From: an uncultured virus (IMG/VR IMGVR_UViG_3300036546_000271)
Lineage: Duplodnaviria > Heunggongvirae > Uroviricota > Caudoviricetes
IMG/VR virus record: IMGVR_UViG_3300036546_000271
Length of the DNA stretch: 20,000 nt
Reading direction: 5' to 3' (one strand)
Position numbers and translations under genes: made by a program. Shown here one piece after another: positions 1 to 12,660 of the stretch. Numbering within the stretch: the first letter of the stretch is position 1; every line of letters begins with the position of its first letter. Below the pieces are notes generated by a model. The model ran no database searches, was not told where the DNA came from, and saw only the letters and a list, made by a program, of their open reading frames with translations.

Positions 1-651
1 AATGCTGGTACAACAGCAACACAAAGAGCAAAACAAATGTGTAGAGATTGGGGGATACCTATAGGTAATTTTGCTGATACAGGTATCCCTCTGTCAAAAA
101 CGCCACCGAAAATAGATACAATTTATGGCATGATGCTGGATGATTTAAGAGAGACCGCTGAAAAAGGAGGCGGTCTTTTTAGATATCGAATGCAAAATAA
201 ATTAGACTTAATCCAGATAGGCAGCAATGAAGTTGTCCACGATATAAGTGAAGTGTTAGAAAATATAGGTCAACTTGGCAGTCTTGAAGGAGCTATATCT
301 AAAGTCAAAGTTCTTGGAAAAAAAGAAGAAGGAACAAAATCTCCAGTGCTTGGTGTTTTTGAAAAAGACACAGACAAAATAGGCACCTTGCAAAAAGTTA
401 TCCAGGATGAAAAAATCCAAGATGTTGGCACTGCCAAAAATAAAGCCGAAGCTTTGTTTTCTAGAGGCGAAGGAAGGATAACGGTAAGAGGAACAGATAT
501 TCCAGATATAAGAGCCGGAGATAAGGTTAAAATTAATGGTTTTTATGTGTATGTAACTAGTGTAGTACACAAACTTGGCGAACCAGGAAGCATGGAACTA
601 GCACTAGAGTCTATAGAACAGATAAGGAGGAAGTACTATGCAGATAGTTGA
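1..651 (+). CDS. Baseplate hub protein, XkdQ/YqbQ-like (5' partial)
   Basis: Frame is open from base 1. C-terminal 'IRAGDKVKING..YVTSVVHKL..MELAL' is typical of XkdQ-like hubs. Lies upstream of XkdR/S/T/U-like genes. Confidence 0.75.
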   Translation, partial: NAGTTATQRAKQMCRDWGIPIGNFADTGIPLSKTPPKIDTIYGMMLDDLRETAEKGGGLFRYRMQNKLDLIQIGSNEVVHDISEVLENIGQLGSLEGAISKVKVLGKKEEGTKSPVLGVFEKDTDKIGTLQKVIQDEKIQDVGTAKNKAEALFSRGEGRITVRGTDIPDIRAGDKVKINGFYVYVTSVVHKLGEPGSMELALESIEQIRRKYYADS

Positions 652-1045
652 TGAAATAGCAAGAGAATTGAATAAAAAGCAAAAAAGTGCCATAGGAAAA
701 GCCTTGTTCAACACTGGTCTAGTGCTAGGAACTGTGACTGGTCCTAATAAAGTAAAATTGGATAATTTCAAATATGAAGTGACTTGTTTGTTTTTAGAAT
801 ATGTGACCAGAAAACACAAACGAATTGTAACGATATCTCACGACGAAATGACAGAAAGAGATTTAGGAGATAAAACAGAATATGATTACTTAGACACAGA
901 TGACAAAGCTCCCCCATACACAAGTTATAAGCATAGTTTTGTGGAGTTGAAGTTTGAGGATGTTCTAAAGGCAGGAGATAGAGTCCTGGTAGCCGTTGTT
1001 AACAACGGTTCTGATCATGTCGTGTTGGGGAGGGTTGCAGAATGA
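638..1045 (+). CDS. Baseplate spike-like protein, XkdR/DUF2577-like
   Basis: 'LGTVTGP' and 'LKAGDRVLVA...HVVLGRV' motifs, AGGAGG RBS, synteny. Confidence 0.7.
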   Translation: MQIVDEIARELNKKQKSAIGKALFNTGLVLGTVTGPNKVKLDNFKYEVTCLFLEYVTRKHKRIVTISHDEMTERDLGDKTEYDYLDTDDKAPPYTSYKHSFVELKFEDVLKAGDRVLVAVVNNGSDHVVLGRVAE

Positions 1046-1506
1046 CAAACCTCTTTCCGGAAAATATGGATTTTGAAATAACAGATATGACAGAAAGCGA
1101 AAGTGAAAGTGTTGAAAATTTCAAAAAAACATATGCTTTTGACTTTGAAAAAGGAGATTTTATAAGAGGACCAGATGGAAAAATCATTTTAGTGAACAGA
1201 CTCGAGGCATACAAGCAATGGTGTCAAAAGGTGCTACTAACAAAGAGAGGTAAACACCTTTCGTATACGCACCTTTATGGCCAAGAATACTACAAATTAA
1301 TCGGACAAGATATCAGTAAATCAGCAATAGAACTAGAGGTTGAAAGAATGACCAGGGAAGCTCTTATGGTCCATCCATATACTAAAAAAGTTGAAAATTT
1401 TGATTTTGAATGGGATAAAAACGAAGAAATCTTATATTTCACTTTTGATGTTATGACAGTTATGGATGAGCTGTTTACTATTGAGCATGTAGAAGAAATG
1501 AGGTGA
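1042..1506 (+). CDS. Baseplate wedge protein, XkdS/DUF2634-like
   Basis: 'YAFDFEKGDF', 'KQWCQKVLLTKRG..YG' and 'EALMVHP' motifs. Immediately precedes baseplate J. Confidence 0.8.
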   Translation: MTNLFPENMDFEITDMTESESESVENFKKTYAFDFEKGDFIRGPDGKIILVNRLEAYKQWCQKVLLTKRGKHLSYTHLYGQEYYKLIGQDISKSAIELEVERMTREALMVHPYTKKVENFDFEWDKNEEILYFTFDVMTVMDELFTIEHVEEMR

Positions 1507-1510
1507 TGAA

Positions 1511-2641
1511 ATGGAAAGAGAATTAAAAATGCCGGATTTTCTTCAAGAGGACGCTGATACCATCCATAATAGAATGCTAGAAAACGCACCCCTAGATATT
1601 AACCTTGTGGAAGGTGATTTTTTTTGGGATGCAACAAGACCTACTGCAGAAGAAAAAGCAGAACTTCTACAGATAAAGCTTCAAAATATATTAAAACTTG
1701 CATTTCCTCAAACAAGTTACGGACAGTATCTAGATTTTTTAGGAGAATTTAAAGATGTATACAGGAAGCCTCCCACTAAGGCAACTGGATACATAAAAGT
1801 AACTGGTAGCATTGGAGCGTATATGCCAAAGGATACGATTATATATACAGAGTCGTATGACGGACCTTCTATAGGATTTGTAGTTTTAGAATCTACGGAA
1901 GTAGATGAAAATGGAGAGGCGATGGTTAAAGTTGAATGCACAGAACCAGGAGTGATTGGCAATGTAGCTTCAAATACAATTAAAATACCAGAAAAAGATA
2001 TTCCTGGCATAAAAACAATAACTAATCCGGAGTCTTTAACAGGAGGAACAGGAGAAGAAGACGACGAGGCTTTTAGAGAAAGAGTATTAGCTGCCTATGA
2101 TGAAAGTCTAAGTGGATCAGATAGCGATTATAAAAGATGGGCCTTACAGGTACCAGGAGTCGGGCAAGCATACGTCATTTCAGAATGGGAAGGTTTTGGA
2201 ACTGGAACAACTAAGCTTCTTATAATGGACTCTAATGGGCAACCTGCGAATGAAACATTGATATCACAGGTGCAAGAATATATAGCTCCACTGGTAGAAA
2301 AAAATAGAGGAGGCTTAGCTCCTGTAAATGCAAATGTAACTGTATCAGCACCAGATGTAATTATTATAAATATATCTGTAAGTCTAATCTTTAAAGATGG
2401 TTACGAAAATTCTGCAGTCATTGAAAACTTGAAAGAAAATATAAAAGAATACCTTAGCACAATTGAAATAACAACTGATGATGAGAATGCTGAATATGTC
2501 TATAAAGAAGCTATAGGACATGTCATATTGAGTACACCAGGTGTAAAAATATATAGCAACTTAACAATTAACGGAGGAACAGATCCAATATTAGTGCCTT
2601 TAGGAGAAGTTCCAGCTTTAGGAGAGGTGTCTATATTATGA
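1511..2641 (+). CDS. Baseplate J/gp47 family protein (XkdT-like)
   Basis: 'EGDFFWDATRP', 'VECTEPGVIGNV', 'GGTGEEDDEAFRERVL' and 'DYKRWALQVPGVG' are hallmark baseplate J motifs. Confidence 0.9.
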   Translation: MERELKMPDFLQEDADTIHNRMLENAPLDINLVEGDFFWDATRPTAEEKAELLQIKLQNILKLAFPQTSYGQYLDFLGEFKDVYRKPPTKATGYIKVTGSIGAYMPKDTIIYTESYDGPSIGFVVLESTEVDENGEAMVKVECTEPGVIGNVASNTIKIPEKDIPGIKTITNPESLTGGTGEEDDEAFRERVLAAYDESLSGSDSDYKRWALQVPGVGQAYVISEWEGFGTGTTKLLIMDSNGQPANETLISQVQEYIAPLVEKNRGGLAPVNANVTVSAPDVIIINISVSLIFKDGYENSAVIENLKENIKEYLSTIEITTDDENAEYVYKEAIGHVILSTPGVKIYSNLTINGGTDPILVPLGEVPALGEVSIL

Positions 2642-3435
2642 TAACTTCTTCTAAAGGAAAACAAATGTTTCAAGCAGTAAGTCCTATATATTATCAATCG
2701 ATTATAATGCAATCTATTTTTCAAGTCATAGGAACAGAATGGGAAGATATAGATAAAATAGTAGACGAGATATTATTGCAGTTATTCCCACAAACAGCTA
2801 CTTGGGGTTTAAGGTATTGGGAGGAACTTTTAAATATACCAGCAAACGAATCAATTCCCATAGAAAAAAGAAGATCCTTAGTAATGACTAGAATAAAACT
2901 CAGAGCACCAATGACACCAGCAAGAATATCAAGTGCAGTAAAATCTTTAGCGGGTCAAATTGCAGATTTTGTAGAGGTAGTCGAAAACGTTGAACCTCAT
3001 GTATTTAGAGTTGTTCTAGGAGCTAAAGAAAGCGGGATTGATTACTTAAGCATTTATAGAGAGATAAAAAGAATAAAACCCTCTCATGAAAGCTTCTATT
3101 TAGGTAATAGCTACCTAAGATCCTTTAGTTTGAATGGAAAGTATATACGTGGTTTTTCTAAAATTCAACATACAATAGGTACATTTGTATGCAGTAAAGA
3201 TGATGTTGAATTTTTAGCCACAAAAGGATATAGAAGAGTTGAGGATATCACAATAGAGAAAAACAGAATATATGGAACATCGGATCCTTTGGTATGTAGC
3301 GAAAAATTAATACACACAACCGAAGGTTTTTTAGATAAAAGCATAATGGACCAGCAAGTGAGTAGCTCAACTGGAACCTCAAACCCTTTGGTTTGTAGTA
3401 AGAACCTCAAGTATACAAGAATAGAGGTGGTGTAA
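2638..3435 (+). CDS. Tail/baseplate protein XkdU/YmfQ (DUF2313)-like with extended C-terminus
   Basis: 'QLFPQTATWGLRYWEELLNI' and 'IKPSH' motifs. Follows baseplate J with ATGA overlap. Confidence 0.8.
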   Translation: MITSSKGKQMFQAVSPIYYQSIIMQSIFQVIGTEWEDIDKIVDEILLQLFPQTATWGLRYWEELLNIPANESIPIEKRRSLVMTRIKLRAPMTPARISSAVKSLAGQIADFVEVVENVEPHVFRVVLGAKESGIDYLSIYREIKRIKPSHESFYLGNSYLRSFSLNGKYIRGFSKIQHTIGTFVCSKDDVEFLATKGYRRVEDITIEKNRIYGTSDPLVCSEKLIHTTEGFLDKSIMDQQVSSSTGTSNPLVCSKNLKYTRIEVV

Positions 3436-3734
3436 TGAATAATTATGGAATTCAAAGAATTTTAGACAGTATAGAGCTGATGGTTAAAGAGGCAAGGGTA
3501 ACATTTTCTGATGGCAACAAAGAAATGATCCCTATAAGGAAAGTAGAAAGAGAAAATGAAACTATAAGAATATTTTTCTACATCCCTGCAGAGCAAACCG
3601 CTCAAACTATAACAAGAGTAGAGCTCATAGATAATAGAGGTTCGGTTATAGATGAACAGACTGATGTAGTTGAAAAAGCTAAAAGGCAAGGTTTTATGAC
3701 TGCTTTTGAATACACGTATAGCGAGGTGAATTAG
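3435..3734 (+). CDS. Hypothetical tail-associated protein
   Basis: 99-aa ORF translationally coupled (TAATG) in the tail operon, GAGGTGG RBS. Confidence 0.6.
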   Translation: MNNYGIQRILDSIELMVKEARVTFSDGNKEMIPIRKVERENETIRIFFYIPAEQTAQTITRVELIDNRGSVIDEQTDVVEKAKRQGFMTAFEYTYSEVN

Positions 3735-4172
3735 ATGTACGATATTATCAAGTGGTATGATGAAGTAAAAGACCAAAACGGAAATCTTTTACAAGAAGGA
3801 ACTTTGCATGATGAAGTCAATATGAACCGTATGGAAGAAGGGATATACCAAGCGAATCTATTGGCTTCAATGTTAGTTCAAAAAGAGCTTCAACAGAAAA
3901 AAGTATTAGCAGCATTGGAAGGAGAGACGGGTCAAATTACTTTGACTAATAGCGAAACATTTCCTTTCAATAATTCCGTTCAGACTATAGCAATGGAAAA
4001 GCAGAGAGATGCTTTGGACTATAGAGTTTCTGTTGAAGTTATATCTAGTGATGGTGTTGTTGGAGATATCATAATCTCTGATAAGCAGCTAAATGGTTTT
4101 AAAATCGAATACACAGGTAGTGCTACAAGTGCAACTATTAAATATTACGTCCAAGGAGGCATGTATCAATAA
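3735..4172 (+). CDS. Hypothetical tail fibre/adaptor-like protein
   Basis: 145 aa, abuts the previous stop. N-terminal 'W.D...QEGT...NMNRMEEGI' resembles fibre N-termini. C-terminus is beta-rich. Confidence 0.55.
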   Translation: MYDIIKWYDEVKDQNGNLLQEGTLHDEVNMNRMEEGIYQANLLASMLVQKELQQKKVLAALEGETGQITLTNSETFPFNNSVQTIAMEKQRDALDYRVSVEVISSDGVVGDIIISDKQLNGFKIEYTGSATSATIKYYVQGGMYQ

Positions 4173-4336
4173 TGGCTAATGTTATACTTAAAAGCGATGA
4201 TAGAAAACAAAGAGAAAGACAAATTTTAAAGGATTTTGGATATAGTTCTAATACAGCTAGTAAAGAAGCTAGAGAAAAAGCTGAATATATAGCAGAAAAA
4301 ACTATGGAAATCAAGAAAAGTTGGGGGTGTAAGTAG
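4172..4336 (+). CDS. Small hypothetical protein (54 aa; not in ORF track)
   Basis: ATG at 4172 overlaps the upstream TAA, AGGAGG RBS upstream. Reads MANVILKSDDRKQRERQILKDFG...KSWGCK, with TAG abutting the next ATG (4337). Confidence 0.7.
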   Translation: MANVILKSDDRKQRERQILKDFGYSSNTASKEAREKAEYIAEKTMEIKKSWGCK

Positions 4337-4666
4337 ATGAATGTGATTGAAAAAAATGCAGGTCCTAAGATTGAATATAAACAAGAAAGTGAAAGCATAA
4401 TTTCATTTAGAGATGAATTATTTTTAAATCTTGAAAAATGCGAAAGAGACTATCCTGTGCAAATTGATATATGTGAAAATGAAGATGGAATACTAACTAC
4501 AGGCATTTCAAAGAAATATATAGCTCAAATAGAAATACCAGCACGAAAATACAGTGAAATTCCAATACAAGAAACAGGAACTGAAATCGAGGGAGAATCA
4601 ATAAAGCTCGAGCCAGTTCCTTTTTCAATGGACAATATAATATTAACATTATGGGCGATAAAATAA
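4337..4666 (+). CDS. Hypothetical protein upstream of DGR target
   Basis: 109-aa acidic ORF, GGGGG RBS, coupled to its neighbours. Confidence 0.65.
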   Translation: MNVIEKNAGPKIEYKQESESIISFRDELFLNLEKCERDYPVQIDICENEDGILTTGISKKYIAQIEIPARKYSEIPIQETGTEIEGESIKLEPVPFSMDNIILTLWAIK

Positions 4667-4678
4667 GGAGGTTATAAC

Positions 4679-5743
4679 ATGAATTATGATATGCTAAAAC
4701 TTGCGGTAGAAGGACTTAGTGGAGGAAAAAACACTATTTTGTTAGATGATAGAGGTATGCCAAGCTTTATGGTTAGATTTCCTAAATTAAAAGATTCTGA
4801 CCTGGTAGATGGTGCTACGCAGGATACTCACGATGCATTTATAGTCGATGGTGTAGAAAAAGACTTTTTCTATGTTTCTAAATACCAAAACATAGTAAAA
4901 GATGATAGAGCATACAGTTTGCCACTAATGGATCCAAGGGTATATGTGAACTTTGACCAGGCTAAAAACTATTCCGAAAACAAAGGATTAGGATGGCATC
5001 TTATGACAAATGCCGAGAGAGCAGCTATAGCTTTATGGTGTAAAAAGAACGGTTTTATGCCTCGTGGGAATAACGATTATGGCAAAGACGTATCTGCCCC
5101 TCATGAAAAAGGTATTGTTACTTATAAATATACAAGTGGTGAGACTGAATTAGATGGTAGAGTTGCTACTGGTTCTGGCCCTGCAAGTTGGGCACATGAC
5201 GGTACAACAGATGGAATCTATGATTTAAACGGGAACGTCTGGGAATGGTTTGGAGGCTACAGACTTGTAGATGGGGAAATTCAAATCATCCCATATAATA
5301 ATGCTGCTATGCAAGTAAATCAAGATCCAGATAGCACTCTTTGGAAAGCGATTATGCCAGACGGTTCATTAGTTGAACCAGGAACAGCTGGAACTCTTAA
5401 ATACGACGCAACTAATGCAGATGGCAGTGGTGGAATTCAAATTGGAACAGATGTTGTTAATCAAACAACTGGAGACCCATATGCAGCTCAAACATTAGAA
5501 ACTATAGCTGCAAAATCTGGAATTACAATACCAAATATCATGAAAACTTTAGCTTTAGCTCCTATAGACTCTGACCACGGAGGAGATTACCTGTATATGA
5601 GAAACCTTGGAGAGAGACTTCCGTCTTTCGGTGGCTGCTGGCACAGCGGTTCTTGGGCTGGTGTGTTTGCGGTGTACCTCCCCCACCCTCGCTCGTACTC
5701 CCTCAGCAGTATCGGTTTCCGCTCCGCTTATATTGAACTGTAA
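4679..5743 (+). CDS. DGR target protein; Mtd-like putative receptor-binding protein with C-type lectin (FGE-sulfatase-like) fold
   Basis: 'GIYDLNGNVWEW' and terminal 'GG.W....AGVF.......RS.S..SIGFRSA' match CLec/FGE-type DGR targets. The 3' end carries the VR. Located at the end of the tail module. Confidence 0.9.
   Translation: MNYDMLKLAVEGLSGGKNTILLDDRGMPSFMVRFPKLKDSDLVDGATQDTHDAFIVDGVEKDFFYVSKYQNIVKDDRAYSLPLMDPRVYVNFDQAKNYSENKGLGWHLMTNAERAAIALWCKKNGFMPRGNNDYGKDVSAPHEKGIVTYKYTSGETELDGRVATGSGPASWAHDGTTDGIYDLNGNVWEWFGGYRLVDGEIQIIPYNNAAMQVNQDPDSTLWKAIMPDGSLVEPGTAGTLKYDATNADGSGGIQIGTDVVNQTTGDPYAAQTLETIAAKSGITIPNIMKTLALAPIDSDHGGDYLYMRNLGERLPSFGGCWHSGSWAGVFAVYLPHPRSYSLSSIGFRSAYIEL
5618..5728 (+). 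repeat. DGR variable repeat (VR), 111 bp
   Basis: Ungapped match to 6186-6296 with 14 mismatches, each opposite an A in TR. Confidence 0.97.
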
Positions 5744-5773
5744 TCTGAAATCTGTAAAACTGATAATCTGAGT

Positions 5774-5793
5774 AGTCCTGCGATAGCAGGGCT
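5774..5793 (+). promoter_or_regulatory. DGR target-recognition hairpin/cruciform
   Basis: AGTCCTGC-GATA-GCAGGGCT: 8-bp stem (one G-T pair) with a GRNA-type 4-nt loop, about 45 bp downstream of VR. Confidence 0.75.
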
Positions 5794-5818
5794 TTATATA
5801 GCATTGGAGGTTGCAATA

Positions 5819-6160
5819 TTGAAGCAAGATTTCAAGATACTTCAAAAAACTTATGACATGATACTTTATGGCAATATATGTTTAAAGCAGTTTCCGAAAT
5901 TTGAAAAACACGTAATGTCAGCGGATATACGAAGTTCCATGTACAAATTATTAAACCTTATAGTTAGAGCTAATAAAAAATATTACAAGAAAACTACTTT
6001 ACAAGATATAGATATAGAACTAGAAGTTTTAAGAACATATATAAGACTTGCAGCGGATCCAAAACTAAAATATTTACCGCTTAAGAAATATGAAAATTGG
6101 AGCAAAATGCTTAACGAGATTGGTAGAATGTTAGGAGGGTGGATGAAATCCACTAAATAG
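5819..6160 (+). CDS. avd: DGR accessory variability determinant (four-helix bundle)
   Basis: Basic protein with 'QFPKFEK', 'LQDIDIELEVLRTYIRLA' and 'EIGRMLGGW', between VR and TR. TTG at 5819 chosen over 5804 because GGAGG lies at 5806-5810. Confidence 0.92.
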   Translation: MKQDFKILQKTYDMILYGNICLKQFPKFEKHVMSADIRSSMYKLLNLIVRANKKYYKKTTLQDIDIELEVLRTYIRLAADPKLKYLPLKKYENWSKMLNEIGRMLGGWMKSTK

Positions 6161-6169
6161 GTATAATAT

Positions 6170-6443
6170 GGGGAATGGATCGTAACTTCCGTATTTCGGT
6201 GGCAACTGGAACAACGGTTCTAGGGCTGGTGTGTTTGCGGTGAACCTCAACAACCCTCGCTCGAACTCCAACAACAGTATCGGTTTCCGCTCCGCTCATT
6301 TTCATAGTCAGAAGGCAAGCGGCTCAAGGGCACTTGTTCAGCACATGAAAATAAGGGGTCCATTTCCCTGCCGATAAGGCAAAAAATTATATTGCTATGA
6401 AAACAGTTAGTAGGTTAATTCTCGAAAGGTGTTACACATAGCA
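6170..6443 (+). ncRNA. Putative structured DGR template RNA (TR plus flanks/spacer)
   Basis: 6170-6181 can pair with 6357-6368. Further stems at 6298-6305/6345-6352, 6369-6381 and 6393-6399/6437-6443. Boundaries are inferred. Confidence 0.55.
6186..6296 (+). repeat. DGR template repeat (TR), 111 bp
   Basis: Non-coding copy of VR with 9 in-frame AAC triplets and 22 adenines, between avd and RT. Confidence 0.97.
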
Positions 6444-6472
6444 TTTAAATACAACATGGAGATGACGAGAAA

Positions 6473-7612
6473 ATGAAAAGATATGGCAATATATATAAAC
6501 AAATATATGATTTCGAAAATTTGTACCAGGCCTATTTAGAGGCAAGAAAAAACAAAAGGTACAGAGCTGACGTTTTAGAATTTAGTGCAAACTTAGAAGA
6601 AAACCTCATAGAAATTCAAAATGAATTGATATGGAAAGAATATGAGGTTGGAAGATATAGAGAGTTCTATGTATATGAACCTAAAAAAAGGCTTATAATG
6701 GCACTCCCTTTTAAGGACAGAGTGGTTCAATGGGCGATTTATAGAGTATTAAACCCAATATTTAATAAAACCTTTATAGAGCATAGTTATGCATGCAGAA
6801 AATGGAAAGGAACTCACAAAGCAGCAGATAAATTGCAGGATTGGCTTAGGAAACTAGATAGAAAACCAATTAAACACTACTATCTCAAAATGGATATATC
6901 AAAATATTTCTACAGAGTAGATCATGACGTTGCATTAAATATCCTTGAAAGAAAAATAAAAGATAAAGACGTGATTTGGCTGCTAGAAAAGATTATCAAG
7001 AGCAAACAAAAGCCATTTGGATTGCCATTGGGTATGGAGCCTGGAGATTGCCCTAAGCATATGAGGTTGTATAACAAAGGAATGCCTATAGGCAATCTAA
7101 CAAGCCAGCTCCTGGCAAACATATATCTCAATGAACTGGATCAATTCTGTAAACACGACCTAAGGATTAAGTATTACATCAGATATATGGATGACTTTAT
7201 TATTTTACACCATGATAAGAAATATTTACACAGGTTAAAAGTGGAAATAGAAAGCTTTTTAAACAGCCAACTTAAACTGCATCTCAATAAAAAGACTTGC
7301 ATTAGGCCTATAAGCTTAGGCATAGAGTTTGTAGGTTTTAAAATATGGCCAACCCATAGGAAATTAAAGAAAAAATCGGCTATCAAAATGAAAAGAAGAC
7401 TTAGGTATTTAAAGAAGGCATATGCCAGAGGGGAGGTTGCTTTAGATGAAATAAATGCAAGCATACAAAGTTATTTAGGGATACTGCAACATTGTAATAG
7501 TTATTCTCTCAAAAAGTCTATTTTTAAAGACTTGATTTTTACAAAGGACAAAATAAAAGAGTTCGCTAATAAAGGTATAGAGCAAGAAAACTCCAGTGGC
7601 TCACAAACATAA
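6473..7612 (+). CDS. DGR reverse transcriptase
   Basis: 'YIRYMDDF' catalytic motif, DGR-type 'GMPIGNLTSQ' motif, 'KDRVVQ', 'LKMDISKYF'. 379 aa with no maturase or endonuclease domain. Confidence 0.97.
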   Translation: MKRYGNIYKQIYDFENLYQAYLEARKNKRYRADVLEFSANLEENLIEIQNELIWKEYEVGRYREFYVYEPKKRLIMALPFKDRVVQWAIYRVLNPIFNKTFIEHSYACRKWKGTHKAADKLQDWLRKLDRKPIKHYYLKMDISKYFYRVDHDVALNILERKIKDKDVIWLLEKIIKSKQKPFGLPLGMEPGDCPKHMRLYNKGMPIGNLTSQLLANIYLNELDQFCKHDLRIKYYIRYMDDFIILHHDKKYLHRLKVEIESFLNSQLKLHLNKKTCIRPISLGIEFVGFKIWPTHRKLKKKSAIKMKRRLRYLKKAYARGEVALDEINASIQSYLGILQHCNSYSLKKSIFKDLIFTKDKIKEFANKGIEQENSSGSQT

Positions 7613-7881: not shown

Positions 7882-7893
7882 GAGGTTTTGAAA

Positions 7894-8604
7894 ATGAAAG
7901 TGATTATAGACCCAGGGCACGGAGGGAAGGATCCTGGTGGTGGAAGTAATAACTATTGGTTAGAAAAAGATAAAACATTAGAAATATCGTTATATCAATT
8001 GAAAAGACTCAAAGAGCTTGGGATAGATGTAGAAATCACAAGAGATAAAGACATATATTTAGGCCCTACTGAAAGAACAAAGATAGTAAGAAATTCTAAT
8101 GCCGACATATGCATTTCAAACCATATAAATGCAGGAGGCGGTGAAGGTGCTGAAACGATACACAGTATTTTTTCAGATGGCAAGTTGGCAACTATCATTC
8201 TGAATAAAATGGTGGCTGCAGGACAGAAAAAAAGAAGAGTCTTTTGCAAAAAAAGCTCAAGATGGCCTGGAAAGGACTATTATTACATGCACAGGCAAAC
8301 TGGCAATGTGGAAACTGTTATAGTAGAGTATGGGTTCGCAGACAATGAAAATGATACAGAAAGAATAAAAAAGCATTGGAAAGAATATGCTGAGGCAGTT
8401 ATTAGAGCCATATGTCAATATGCAGATATTCCATACTCAAATCAGGCTAAAGAAGATAAAGCAGATGGACCGAGTCCGTGGGCTAAGGAAGCTTGGGAAA
8501 AATCTATTAGGATAGGTCTAAATGATGGAGCAGGAGCTAAAAATCCTGTAACAGAAGAGCAACTTATGGTTTTCTTCGATAGACTTGGGCTATTAGACAG
8601 ATAA
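7894..8604 (+). CDS. Endolysin, N-acetylmuramoyl-L-alanine amidase (Amidase_3) with C-terminal SLH-like segment
   Basis: 'IDPGHGGKDPG', 'EK', 'SNHINAGGGEGAE', 'VIVEYGF'. C-terminal 'WAKEAWEK...NPVTEEQL'. ATG at 7894 fits the AGGAGG RBS. Confidence 0.92.
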   Translation: MKVIIDPGHGGKDPGGGSNNYWLEKDKTLEISLYQLKRLKELGIDVEITRDKDIYLGPTERTKIVRNSNADICISNHINAGGGEGAETIHSIFSDGKLATIILNKMVAAGQKKRRVFCKKSSRWPGKDYYYMHRQTGNVETVIVEYGFADNENDTERIKKHWKEYAEAVIRAICQYADIPYSNQAKEDKADGPSPWAKEAWEKSIRIGLNDGAGAKNPVTEEQLMVFFDRLGLLDR

Positions 8605-8618
8605 AGGGGTGATTGCAA

Positions 8619-8879
8619 ATGAAAAAGAAAATGGAGTTTTCTAAAATCTTAGCGATAATTATAACCATACTGTTTGTAGTAAGTATAATTTTTGTATTTG
8701 CAGTGTGGTATTTTGAAAACAGGCTTGGAACAGAAATTCTTTCTTATGTTGCAATGCCTTTTGGCGTTGTTATAAGCGGGTATTTTGCAAAGGCGGGCTT
8801 TGAGAACCATAGAAAAATCAATAATGCAGGCAAAGAAATCGTAAAGTTTAATAATGAGGAGGAATATTATAATGGATAA
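8619..8879 (+). CDS. Small two-TM membrane protein (holin-like)
   Basis: 'MEFSKIL' followed by two hydrophobic helices and 'GYFAKAGFEN'. In the lysis cassette. Start could be 8613. Confidence 0.6.
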   Translation: MKKKMEFSKILAIIITILFVVSIIFVFAVWYFENRLGTEILSYVAMPFGVVISGYFAKAGFENHRKINNAGKEIVKFNNEEEYYNG

Positions 8880-9192
8880 TAATGCTGTAATAGAAATTGG
8901 GACTATCATAATCGCTCTTATAGGTGCGGTTATAACGTATATAGTTACACCATACATCAAAAGCAAGACCACCGCAGAGCAATACAAAAATATAGAGTTT
9001 TGGGTTAGGTTTGCAGTTAAAGCTGCAGAACAAATATTCAACCAGCCAGGTATGGGAAATAAAAAGAAACAATATGTCATTGACTTTTTAACCAGCAAAG
9101 GCATAAACATAACACTTGATGAGTTGAATGTATTGATTGAAGCTGCAGTCCAAGAACTGAATTTAGAAAAAAGAGATTTGACCAGGGAATAA
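8872..9192 (+). CDS. Phage holin, LL-H family-like
   Basis: N-terminal TM helix, 'AVKAAEQIF..G.G.KKKQYV' and 'LIEAAVQEL'. GAGGAGG RBS before ATG 8872. Confidence 0.82.
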   Translation: MDNNAVIEIGTIIIALIGAVITYIVTPYIKSKTTAEQYKNIEFWVRFAVKAAEQIFNQPGMGNKKKQYVIDFLTSKGINITLDELNVLIEAAVQELNLEKRDLTRE

Positions 9193-9207
9193 TCCCTGGT
9201 CTTTTTT
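9180..9207 (+). terminator. Rho-independent terminator of late/lysis operon
   Basis: GACCAGGGA-ATAA-TCCCTGGTC perfect 9-bp stem followed by T6. Confidence 0.88.
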
Positions 9208-9221
9208 AATTTAAAGAATTT

Positions 9222-9268
9222 TGATATAATAATTTGATATAATAAATAATACAAAATTTAAGGAGGAG
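9222..9268 (+). promoter_or_regulatory. Tandem extended -10 promoters and RBS for the miaB 5' fragment
   Basis: TGATATAAT at 9222-9230 and 9235-9243 (TGn-TATAAT), then AAGGAGGAG upstream of ATG 9274. Confidence 0.7.
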
Positions 9269-9273
9269 AATAA

Positions 9274-9426
9274 ATGAGCAAAAGGAAGGAAATAAATGTA
9301 TCTAAAAACGAACTAGCTAAGCAGCAAATTTATATAGATAAAATAAGAAAGATGAACGACGAATACTACAAAAGAACAGGCAAGAGGAAAAAACATCTCA
9401 CTCTAACGTTCGGTTGTCAGATGAAC
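9274..9426 (+). pseudogene. miaB: Phage-borne 5' fragment of tRNA methylthiotransferase MiaB (51 codons; ORF runs on to 9510 in unrelated sequence)
   Basis: Ends in 'LTFGCQMN', the N-terminal Fe-S Cys motif characteristic of MiaB. The expected continuation (xxDSE) is absent, and the frame runs antisense into the integrase 3' end. Confidence 0.8.
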
Positions 9427-9443
9427 TCACTGAGATGTATTTT
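9388..9443. other. Putative attP site of the serine integrase
   Basis: Inverted repeat AAAAAACATCTCA (9388-9400) / TGAGATGTATTTT (9431-9443), 12/13 match, centred on TG at 9415-9416, 16 bp from the integrase stop. Confidence 0.72.
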
Positions 9444-9459
9444 TATTTCCCAACTTTCA

Positions 9460-11175
9460 TCACTTTCTATAAACAAACCTATGGGTAATTCCATTCACAA
9501 ACTCAATTGACGATATGCGTCTATCCTCCTCTATAGTTATGTTTTTGATAACACACCTCATGAAATCCTGGAGCAACTCTTTGTCTACCATTTTTACAAT
9601 TTTGTTGTAGTTAATAGGTTTATTTGTGGCAAGGTTTTGAGCAATAAGATACTGAGTTGCTTTTTTTATAAAACTCAAATCATGACCTGGAAGGCTCTTT
9701 GCATATTCCTGGGTCCTTTTTTTAATTTTTGTATTTATACTATTTATCCTTTTTTCTATATCTTGCTTTTTTATTAAGTAATTTTTTTCTGACATACCTT
9801 CATCGCTGAACAGATATAAATCTTCTAATCTTTTCAAAGCTCTTTCAAACTTCTTCTTTTGAGATTTTAAAGACTCAAGCTCTGTGTCTTTTTCAATGCT
9901 CTTAATTTCATCTTTCTGGTCAAACAATATATTACCAGTACTTTTTAATAAAATATCGTATGTGGTTTTTAAATCCTGCGGAATAATTCCAGCAACATTT
10001 TTAAATGCCGGACCTTTTAACAAAATCCTCTCAACTTCTTTTTCTGTGCCTTTCGTTCCATAAGTATTGATAAAATTATTTGCTTTTACTAGGTTGGCGA
10101 TATAATTGATAATAAATGGTCCAAGCTTAACCTCTCCAATGCTCCCGCTGCATGTCCTATATTTCTTTTTGTTATGAACGTAATTATAACACCTATACAC
10201 AGATGGTCTGTATCCATCAGATCTAGGACGGTCAACAGTGGCTATATAATTTTTATTACATTTGCCACAAGTTATTAATCCCTTGAAAACATGTGTATGG
10301 TTTTTTAGAGTTCTATCAGATCCTCTGCCATGTGCATTGGAATCCATTATAGCGTTGCATTTTTCATACTGAACTTTTGAAATAATAGCGGGATGATTGT
10401 CTTCGACCACAACCCATTCTTCCTCAGGACGAATTTTTCCATGTGGACTATATCTGTAGTTGTATCTATAGGTTCCTATATAAAATGGATTCCTAATTAC
10501 ATCAGCTATAGTTTTTGTGGTCCAATGTCCATTCCTTTTGGTGCGTATTCCACGCTCCTCTAAAAGATGTTTCACTTCTCCTGTAGATCTAGTTTTTTCA
10601 TACGAATCAAAAATAAAACGAACTGTTTCGGCCTCTTTTTCATTGATTACAGGAAACTTTGTTTCTTCATCAAAATCATATCCAAGAGGAACTGGAGCTC
10701 CGTTCCATAAACCTTTCTCTGCTCTAGATAGCATTATAGAGTAGACTCTCTCTGCAGCTAACTTCCTTTCAAGTTCTGCGAATACTAGGATTATCTTAAG
10801 CATTGCCTCTCCCATAGCAGTGGATGTGTCAAATTGTTCATTTTTGGATATAAAAGTAATATTATGCTTTTTTAGCTCCTCATACATTTCAGTGAAGTCT
10901 TTTAAATTTCTTGATATACGATCTATTTTCCAGACCAAGAGATGGGTAAATTCTCCATCTCTTATCCTTTTCATCATTTCCTGGAATTTTGGACGATCTG
11001 TGTTTTTACCACTATAACCAGCATCTTCAAACACTTCATAGTTATCTATGCCTAACAAGTATTTAGAGTAATTGATGAGCTCCTTCCTTTGGAAGGGAAG
11101 GGAATCTTTATCCACTTGATGATGGGTTGACACTCTTATGTATAAAGCTGCTTTGTTTTCTGTGTTTTTATCCAT
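9460..11175 (-). CDS. Large serine recombinase (phage integrase)
   Basis: 'ALYIRVST' catalytic Ser, '[12 protein letters not shown]', 'KIDRISRN', recombinase domain 'NPFYIG', zinc ribbon 'CGKC...YRC...C' and a coiled coil. Confidence 0.96.
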
Positions 11176-12027: not shown

Positions 12028-12660
12028 TTAAACTTTAAATTTAACATGAATGACTTTGCCAATAATTTGTACATAGCCAGATTCAACATCGCTAGACTTA
12101 AAAACCATAGGTTTATATTTAGGGTTTTCTGGTTGAAGAATGACAGAGTCATTAGTTTTTAATACTCTTTTTAGAGTAGCTTCATCTCCATTCACTAAAA
12201 CAACAGCAATTTCGCCATTATCCACATCAGATTGCTTTCTAACATAAACAAGATCGCCGTCATAAATTCTAGCACCTATCATACTATCTCCATTAACTCT
12301 TAAATAGAAGAATTCACCGTTTTGAGCTTCTGATACATCGACATACTCATAGCCTTCAATATTCTCAGCAGCAAATATAGGTTCTCCAGCTTTGATCACT
12401 CCTAGAATTGGGATAGAAATAGTATCGTTCAGCTCAATAATATCCTTCAAATCTTCGTTCCTTTTATTTGTTTTACCAATAAGGTAATCAATAGAAACAC
12501 CGAAGAAATCTGACAATGCTCTTAAAGTCTTTATGTCTGGTTCTCTTTCTTTGAGTTCGTACTTAGATATAGTAGTATTTCTTACGTTTAATATTTTTGC
12601 TAAATCCTTTTGAGTCAAACCTTTTTCAGTTCTTAATAATTTTAGCCTTTTAGAAAACAT
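12028..12660 (-). CDS. CI-like repressor (XRE HTH plus S24 LexA-type autopeptidase)
   Basis: 'RLKLLRTEKGLTQKDLA...ISKYE...REP' HTH, Ala-Gly cleavage site 'IKAGEP', catalytic 'GDSM' and 'ATLKR'. Confidence 0.93.
   Translation of the reverse strand: MFSKRLKLLRTEKGLTQKDLAKILNVRNTTISKYELKEREPDIKTLRALSDFFGVSIDYLIGKTNKRNEDLKDIIELNDTISIPILGVIKAGEPIFAAENIEGYEYVDVSEAQNGEFFYLRVNGDSMIGARIYDGDLVYVRKQSDVDNGEIAVVLVNGDEATLKRVLKTNDSVILQPENPKYKPMVFKSSDVESGYVQIIGKVIHVKFKV

Follow-up and report, generated by a model that had tools for sequence, protein, structure and literature searches.

What becomes of a conserved bacterial gene when a phage integrates into its start? This question is raised by a 20,000-nucleotide stretch of DNA from an uncultured virus (IMG/VR record IMGVR_UViG_3300036546_000271), hereafter called the window, in which the 5' end of miaB, the gene of the ms2i6A37 tRNA methylthiotransferase, stands between the phage lysis genes and the 3' end of an integrase gene. 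A first-pass annotation of the window had described at this place a terminator, two tandem extended -10 boxes, a strong ribosome-binding site (RBS) and 51 codons ending in TFGCQMN, followed by the integrase 3' end, and we found all of these elements. Together with the phage attachment site (attP) and the convergent integrase gene, they very probably form a repair cassette that restores miaB when the phage integrates.

The stretch is present in public sequencing runs from shale-gas, soil and subsurface metagenomes, and the Logan contigs of runs X3 to X6 were compared with positions 8400-10400 of the window. Run X3 contains both of the prophage junctions that had been predicted, phage start to host miaB and host miaB start to integrase side. 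One contig (14,768 bp, depth 61.4) follows the window from 8400 to 9425 with 26 differences over 1026 positions. Past 9425, the frame of the phage open reading frame (ORF) continues with N-EHDSEKLAG, and EHDSEKLAG are the residues that come after GCQMN in proteins named MiaB by their sources (P0056 and P0058). The contig runs 1,739 bp past the junction, leaving room for the rest of miaB. An in-frame fusion joins the phage-borne start to the host gene, which places the element among those that replace the 5' end of their target. The second contig (5,067 bp, depth 61.2) follows the window from 9412 to 10400 with 24 differences over 989 positions, and the ten codons upstream of 9412 (TMKKYIIETW) are a different miaB start. 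The two contigs overlap only in 9412-9425 (GGTTGTCAGATGAA), and their equal depth is what one host with a single prophage would give. X3 has no contig across the site, such as the excised form would yield; this form was independently seen in L020, a JGI contig near-identical to the window and independent of it, and in a 579-bp contig of X4, from another study, that covers 8917-9495.

The phage-borne codons are homologous to the start of MiaB. They make up residues 1-51 of a 78-residue ORF (9274-9510), which gave no match to Pfam or NCBIfam because the piece is so short. When the 51 residues were searched among longer proteins, one of 10 candidates matched, P0003 (476 residues), with an E-value of 3.4e-8 and 61% identity across all 51 residues. 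This protein is a MiaB according to the NCBIfam equivalog TIGR01574 (532 bits, for a cut-off of 355) and scores under the MtaB and RimO cut-offs. In agreement with the assignment made in the first-pass annotation, BLASTP aligned residues 1-52 of the ORF to residues 1-52 of P0003 with 31/52 identical (E 2e-18), and nothing in the ORF is alike past N51. As far as the first cluster-binding cysteine motif, the fragment runs collinear with MiaB, and it is a gene start rather than a complete enzyme, the combination of UPF0004, radical SAM and TRAM domains being absent. As the TIGR01574 model starts at residue 40 of P0003, the fragment comprises a lineage-specific N-terminal extension and, as far as the cysteine, the first conserved strand. 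A search with a related short ORF (P0006) returned 24 proteins of 44 candidates; 23 of them have 445-486 residues, for nine the source gives the name MiaB (Tepidibacter, Alkaliphilus, Clostridium formicaceticum and others), and 18 of the 24 contain KHL[T/I]VTYGCQMNEHDSE, which is close to the residues of the window itself. It had also been claimed that TFGCQMN is the motif of MiaB while RimO and MtaB have different ones. The MtaB part of this claim holds, and it is this part that our result covers: the MtaB paralogue of genome G003 has TLGCKVN (TLGCKVNQYETE) at the motif position. Against phages, tblastn with the 51 residues gave one weak match only (E 0.06), and the ORF also matches phrog_38798, a family of unknown function (E 1.4e-14).

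The host-side junction was found in other material as well. In a 12-kb locus of a 137-kb contig (L023), genes of a branched-chain amino-acid ABC transporter, a CBS/ACT protein and a firmicute fructose-1,6-bisphosphatase lie upstream, and after these bacterial genes a miaB start of 52 codons leads into the attachment site's integrase-side arm. The proposal that the integrase targets the GCQMN codons of host miaB is supported by both X3 junctions and by this host-side junction, which has ordinary bacterial genes upstream. The IMG/VR provirus L009 has the same junction as L023. In a Tissierellaceae metagenome-assembled genome (L003), whose integrase is 69% identical, a 16-codon start is joined to the arm just before the contig ends, and this is probably a host-side junction too. 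A degenerate pattern made of the core and the integrase-side arm was found at one IMG/VR locus and at five in metagenome contigs. The fetched stretches of five other integrase relatives, namely L004 and L005 (Blautia, Lachnospiraceae metagenome-assembled genome), IMG/VR L011, FP_Brigit and MT835491, contain no GCQM codons, and these integrases probably use other sites. No junction was present at the other end of provirus G001, and the sequence of G002 goes no further than the integrase stop. Neither the terminator-promoter pattern nor one of phage arm plus NEHD had a match in the viral contigs scanned.

The integrase qualifies as a large serine recombinase by its domains (PF00239, 5.3e-38; PF07508, 2e-25; PF13408, 3.9e-8), and its stop lies 34 nt past codon 51 of the miaB fragment. 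The attP has the form found with serine integrases, that is about 50 bp with imperfect inverted arms, a central dinucleotide and an adjoining integrase gene. Its left arm is inside the miaB codons for K-H-L-T, and the DNA here is thus recombination site as well as coding sequence. From the symmetry of the arms, the crossover would take place at the TG in 9415-9416, and the break proposed in the first-pass annotation, 9416/9417, falls exactly at this predicted centre; the X3 junctions leave the exact cut position within the 14-bp common core. The excised forms L020, L021 and L022 are likewise symmetric about this TG, and L023 and L009, in which host DNA makes up the left side, are not. The TG is also flanked by the alternative junctions described below, X5 and X6 breaking after G9416 and the identity of L019 starting at the TG. 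The coordinates of all features are given in Table 1.

Table 1. Features of the miaB cassette and of its surroundings, in positions of the window.
Feature	Position	Strand	Details
Intrinsic terminator	9180-9208 (stem 9180-9201, then T run)	+	9-pair stem, 6 GC pairs
Two tandem extended -10 boxes TGATATAAT, putative miaB-cassette promoter	9222-9230, 9235-9243	+	
Ribosome-binding site AAGGAGGAG, strong, 5 nt ahead of ATG 9274	9260-9268	+	read from sequence
Phage-borne miaB 5' fragment, 51 codons, final residues TFGCQMN	9274-9426	+	
attP inverted repeat	arms 9388-9400 and 9431-9443, 30-nt centre		13 nt, 92% complementary
Core of 14 bp GGTTGTCAGATGAA, common to both prophage junctions	9412-9425		attP = attB here
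Putative central crossover dinucleotide TG, first two bases of Cys codon 48	9415-9416		attP symmetry centre
ORF run-on in excised form, 27 codons (SLRCIFIS...)	9427-9510	+	crosses P' arm, antisense to integrase 3' end
Large serine recombinase (integrase), 571 aa	9460-11175	-	Pfam Resolvase + Recombinase + Zn_ribbon_recom
Baseplate and tail genes	37-5743		PHROG scans
Endolysin	7888-8604		PHROG scans
Holin, last lysis-module gene	8854-9192	+	phrog_6918, E 1.9e-25
CI-like repressor with S24/UmuD-like domain (lysogeny module)	12028-12660	-	phrog_4 at 1.7e-46, also phrog_811

A separate observation concerns L023 (6001-6038 and 6029-7747), in which the integrase stop is inside the integrase-side arm, meaning that the gene end overlaps the recombination site.

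The cassette recurs in other phages. L021 has an endolysin gene and a holin gene of another family (phrog_1299), then the same terminator and TGATATAAT, an RBS and 27 miaB codons, and the cassette of L022 contains 55 miaB codons. When the window, L021 and L022 are aligned, the terminator stem, one TGATATAAT and the attP are invariant; the coding part has diverged, with a 28-codon gap in L021. The presence of a conserved cassette beside differing lysis genes indicates that cassette and integrase travel together among phages. In total, three phage lineages besides that of the window, including Clostridium phage phiCT19406C, carry the same cassette. At the protein level, a phmmer search with the 78-residue ORF against 1.84 billion representatives gave 39 matches at E <= 0.001, and 36 were fetched, the three left out being proteins of 2101, 2558 and 582 residues without the motif. 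Of the 36, twelve are short ORFs that go on from GCQMN into a tail resembling that of the window (x-[V/L]-R-[C/P/R/L]), two are short ORFs with variant tails, ten continue as MiaB, and twelve stop at the motif or diverge inside or just past it. One common start occurs in both states, in P0005 and P0006. In hosts, 301 genomes were sampled from the class of G003; one match to the miaB start was found in 43 of them, and the codons GGN TGY CAR ATG AAY G[A/C]N were present in 20 of 30 fetched loci from genomes of this class. The DNA of these host sites is strongly conserved to the right of the TG and variable to its left, which makes the site well suited as a target in hosts whose MiaB starts differ.

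Among deposited integrases, the closest (52% identity) is that of phiCT19406C (KM983332), a prophage of Clostridium tetani ATCC 19406 that has the same design, with host-side and phage-side copies of terminator, promoter, RBS and gene start that both run to GGTTGTCAAATG. At its left end, the terminator, a promoter-like region, the RBS and 28 codons reaching ETWGCQM are joined to the integrase side; the record, which uses prophage coordinates, has the second copy of these parts at its right end. The duplication covers about 190 bp (L001 1-198 and L002 3018-3204), of which the attL/attR annotated in the record comprise only a 38-bp terminator repeat. Over a 189-bp alignment, 166 positions of the host copy are invariant; identity is highest over the terminator and promoter, and the differences cluster in the codons of the phage arm, which mirrors the integrase-side arm AAAAATTCTTCTTTA about the same TG. 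In the phage copy, ACG replaces the ATG and an in-frame TTG adjoins it. This prophage differs from the window by another arm motif, and its record ends at the junction, so that miaB is its putative target.

The supply of a start to the host gene, as foreseen in the first-pass annotation, is seen in X3; that of a promoter is suggested by the signals upstream of the fragment. The terminator would stop transcription of the lysis operon ahead of the cassette. Terminator-like sites number 2 in 8800-9600, for 0.3 expected, and both are the two strands of one hairpin. On the plus strand of the window, TGNTATAAT has two matches only, and these are the two TGATATAAT boxes. No RNA family of Rfam was found in 9200-9274. 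From its anatomy, with a terminator ahead, extended -10 boxes, an RBS and a conserved frame, the cassette is predicted to drive miaB expression.

On these grounds, we propose that the integrase would recombine attP with host miaB at the TG that opens the first cysteine codon of the conserved G-C-Q-M-N stretch. A chimeric in-frame miaB would arise at one end of the prophage, where the cassette would provide its promoter, its start codon and residues 1-47. The host promoter and gene start would be left over at the opposite end, in a short stub running into the integrase gene antisense to it. In this way, a lysogen would keep an intact-looking MiaB rather than lose it, and the chimeric MiaB is predicted to be an active enzyme. 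Phage control of tRNA modification is a possibility rather than a finding: the signals of phiCT19406C are nearly those of its host, so phage-derived signals need not mean different regulation.

Several results weigh against repair of miaB as a full account. The X3 phage is 97.5% identical to the window and is a close relative with another genome, and its junctions were viewed for 30 letters past each of them only. In X5 and X6, which contain the same phage variant at contig depths of 12 and 391, the left side of the phage is joined after 9416 to unrelated sequence, and the junction reads TTC GGT TGA, that is a stop. In L019 (1-2400 and 2389-2426), the integrase side is joined to DNA other than miaB: an arm and integrase identical to those of the L021 type are preceded, left of the TG, by ...CTAGCC and by SSB and DUF7694 genes on the minus strand. 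Therefore integration is not always into miaB, and these junctions may have arisen by insertion at secondary sites or by exchange with other elements. In the order of G003, the integrase-side arm pattern was found in one of 401 genomes, G003 itself, with no further lysogen, and the miaB start never occurred twice in a genome among the 301 of its class. The promoter signals are also debatable. On both strands, TGNTATAAT has 5 matches for 1.8 expected, and as at least 5 were reached in 10 of 200 shuffles, this count is by itself not significant. A generic promoter scan gave no -35/-10 pair score to the two TGATATAAT boxes and paired instead TTGATA (9221-9226) with AATAAT (9245-9250); in Firmicutes, extended -10 promoters can function without a -35 box. 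Finally, the ATCTCA of the left arm may be inherited host coding sequence and not an integrase signal. A native miaB in ordinary host context (L039 1504-1560, genome G028) has GTATCTCAT 14 nt left of the TG of the cysteine codon, a distance equal to that in the phage's left arm, and the ATCTCA motif is at nearly the same distance in L031 too.

ATCTCA had been considered as a diagnostic of the phage-side arm and was dropped, the same motif being present in the native miaB of L039. The host site of L039 would appear half phage-like to the integrase.

The fragment could be thought of as a leftover, only the left attP arm being needed and derived from a host miaB captured in an excision error; the ORF with its RBS and promoter-like boxes would then be idle, and the miaB of the lysogen knocked out or transcribed by read-through only. 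Such an origin would agree with the N-terminus of the X3 phage, strongly unlike that of its host (HLTLTF versus YIIETW), with N-termini that differ between L023 (52 codons) and L021 (27 codons) next to nearly identical integrase ends, and with the dispensability of miaB in model bacteria. However, four lineages keep the start codon, the RBS, the frame into GCQMN, the preceding terminator and a TGNTATAAT-like box, and these signals are kept despite the divergence of the coding part and the length change of 28 codons. Even the phage copy of phiCT19406C, which has lost its ATG, has an in-frame TTG directly after it, and we consider an idle leftover improbable. Another rival is that the cassette is a regulatory device and not a repair. 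In that case, integration would swap the promoter of miaB and its N-terminal extension, tRNA methylthiolation would follow phage or constitutive signals, and the host promoter at the other junction would fire antisense into the integrase gene and help to lock lysogeny. The insulation of the cassette by a terminator, its two tandem extended -10 boxes, the orientation of the host stub towards the integrase 3' end and the 51-nt overlap of the ORF with the integrase gene in the excised form (9460-9510) would all suit a switch of this kind. The upstream copy of phiCT19406C, near that of its host (166/189 invariant), points instead to conserved regulation and not to rewiring, and a purely regulatory role seems very improbable to us.

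A more far-reaching version of the repair cassette combines a portable cassette exchanged between unrelated phages, a chimeric MiaB under phage signals, retuned ms2i6A37 and an antisense lock on the integrase; we hold this whole to be unlikely. If it were true, lysogeny would retune the ms2i6A37 modification of tRNA, and the orphaned host promoter would drive an antisense integrase RNA that locks lysogeny. The landing site in this version is the first iron-sulfur cysteine codon of miaB, and near invariance of the CQMNEHDSE codons across Clostridia would give entry to hosts with differing MiaB starts, in each of which the chimera would have a foreign N-terminal extension. As for an assembly chimera or a misjoin of host and phage DNA, which the metagenome-like source of the window could suggest, the same arrangement is found in the JGI contig L020, in the X4 contig of another study and in runs X1 and X2, and related cassettes are present in L021, L022 and a GenBank phage record; an artefact is almost certainly not the explanation.

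Replacement of the 5' end together with a promoter had been called less familiar than 3'-end duplication in the first-pass annotation. It has already been published for dusA islands, and the replacement of a start codon for rimO (phage JC1). According to the available text of Farrugia et al. 2015 (PMC4482086), dusA islands and prophages replace the 5' end of a conserved tRNA-modification gene, with putative -10/-35 boxes before and after integration, and the new part supplies the first beta strand of the enzyme; a rimO-targeting element is also listed there. The dusA-associated integrases (DAI) of that text are tyrosine recombinases that target dusA (PMC4482086), whereas here a large serine recombinase targets miaB. 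The present element also differs from dusA elements in that its replacement piece lies, after integration, at the phage end opposite the integrase and behind its own terminator. With neither a tyrosine integrase of that clade nor dusA as its target, it works like a DAI element without being a member of this group. In Burkholderia phage JC1, as described in the accessible part of the report (PMC9144972), the serine recombinase gp1 has the 5' end of rimO as its integration site, and a phage ATG keeps rimO in frame with 6 of the first 10 residues altered. JC1 is alike in having a serine recombinase that targets a gene start within the same methylthiotransferase superfamily; it differs in its target, rimO, and no dedicated promoter cassette is described in that part (PMC9144972). 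Upstream of the integrase start lies the JC1 attP, whose region shows no GCxxN codons, and gp1 is 20% identical to the integrase of the window (78/391, E 2e-8). We found no description of miaB as a phage attachment site in the literature, searched without most subscription journals and without supplements. The principle of 5'-end replacement is already known, and the miaB target and the integrase are new. Other elements, such as phage 21 at icd, also enter a conserved gene and rebuild it with sequence of their own, a duplicated 3' end for a tRNA gene or a protein gene; as it is the 3' end that they replace, neither a promoter nor a start codon is required.

These results matter for annotation, since prophage junctions within conserved genes can be mistaken for gene disruptions or for tiny hypothetical ORFs, and PHROGs already keeps such ORFs as a family of unknown function, phrog_38798. 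Once the cassette is recognized, att-site calls can be corrected and the miaB of such lysogens annotated as a chimera. It also adds a family of serine integrases whose natural landing site is conserved at the DNA level in many Firmicutes, and which may interest developers of integrase tools. Finally, it provides a testable case of whether a prophage alters host tRNA modification.

The source of the window is a temperate tailed phage, as judged by PHROG scans of its genes, and more precisely a temperate phage of subsurface Clostridia. As the lysis genes adjoin the integrase, the window represents the excised, attP-bearing form. In these scans, cro-like, SbcC-like, RecT and DnaD/DnaC-like genes follow beyond the CI-like repressor, and an XhlA-like protein is encoded between a diversity-generating retroelement and the endolysin. 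The DNA of the region gave no match, near or distant, in the phage collection. The diversity-generating retroelement is complete and occupies 4679-7612. Its target gene (4679-5743) contains the variable repeat (5608-5734) and is followed by Avd (5804-6160), a template repeat (6176-6302) with 84% identity to the variable repeat, an RNA of the Rfam family RT-14 (6295-6441, 64 bits) and the reverse transcriptase gene (6473-7612).

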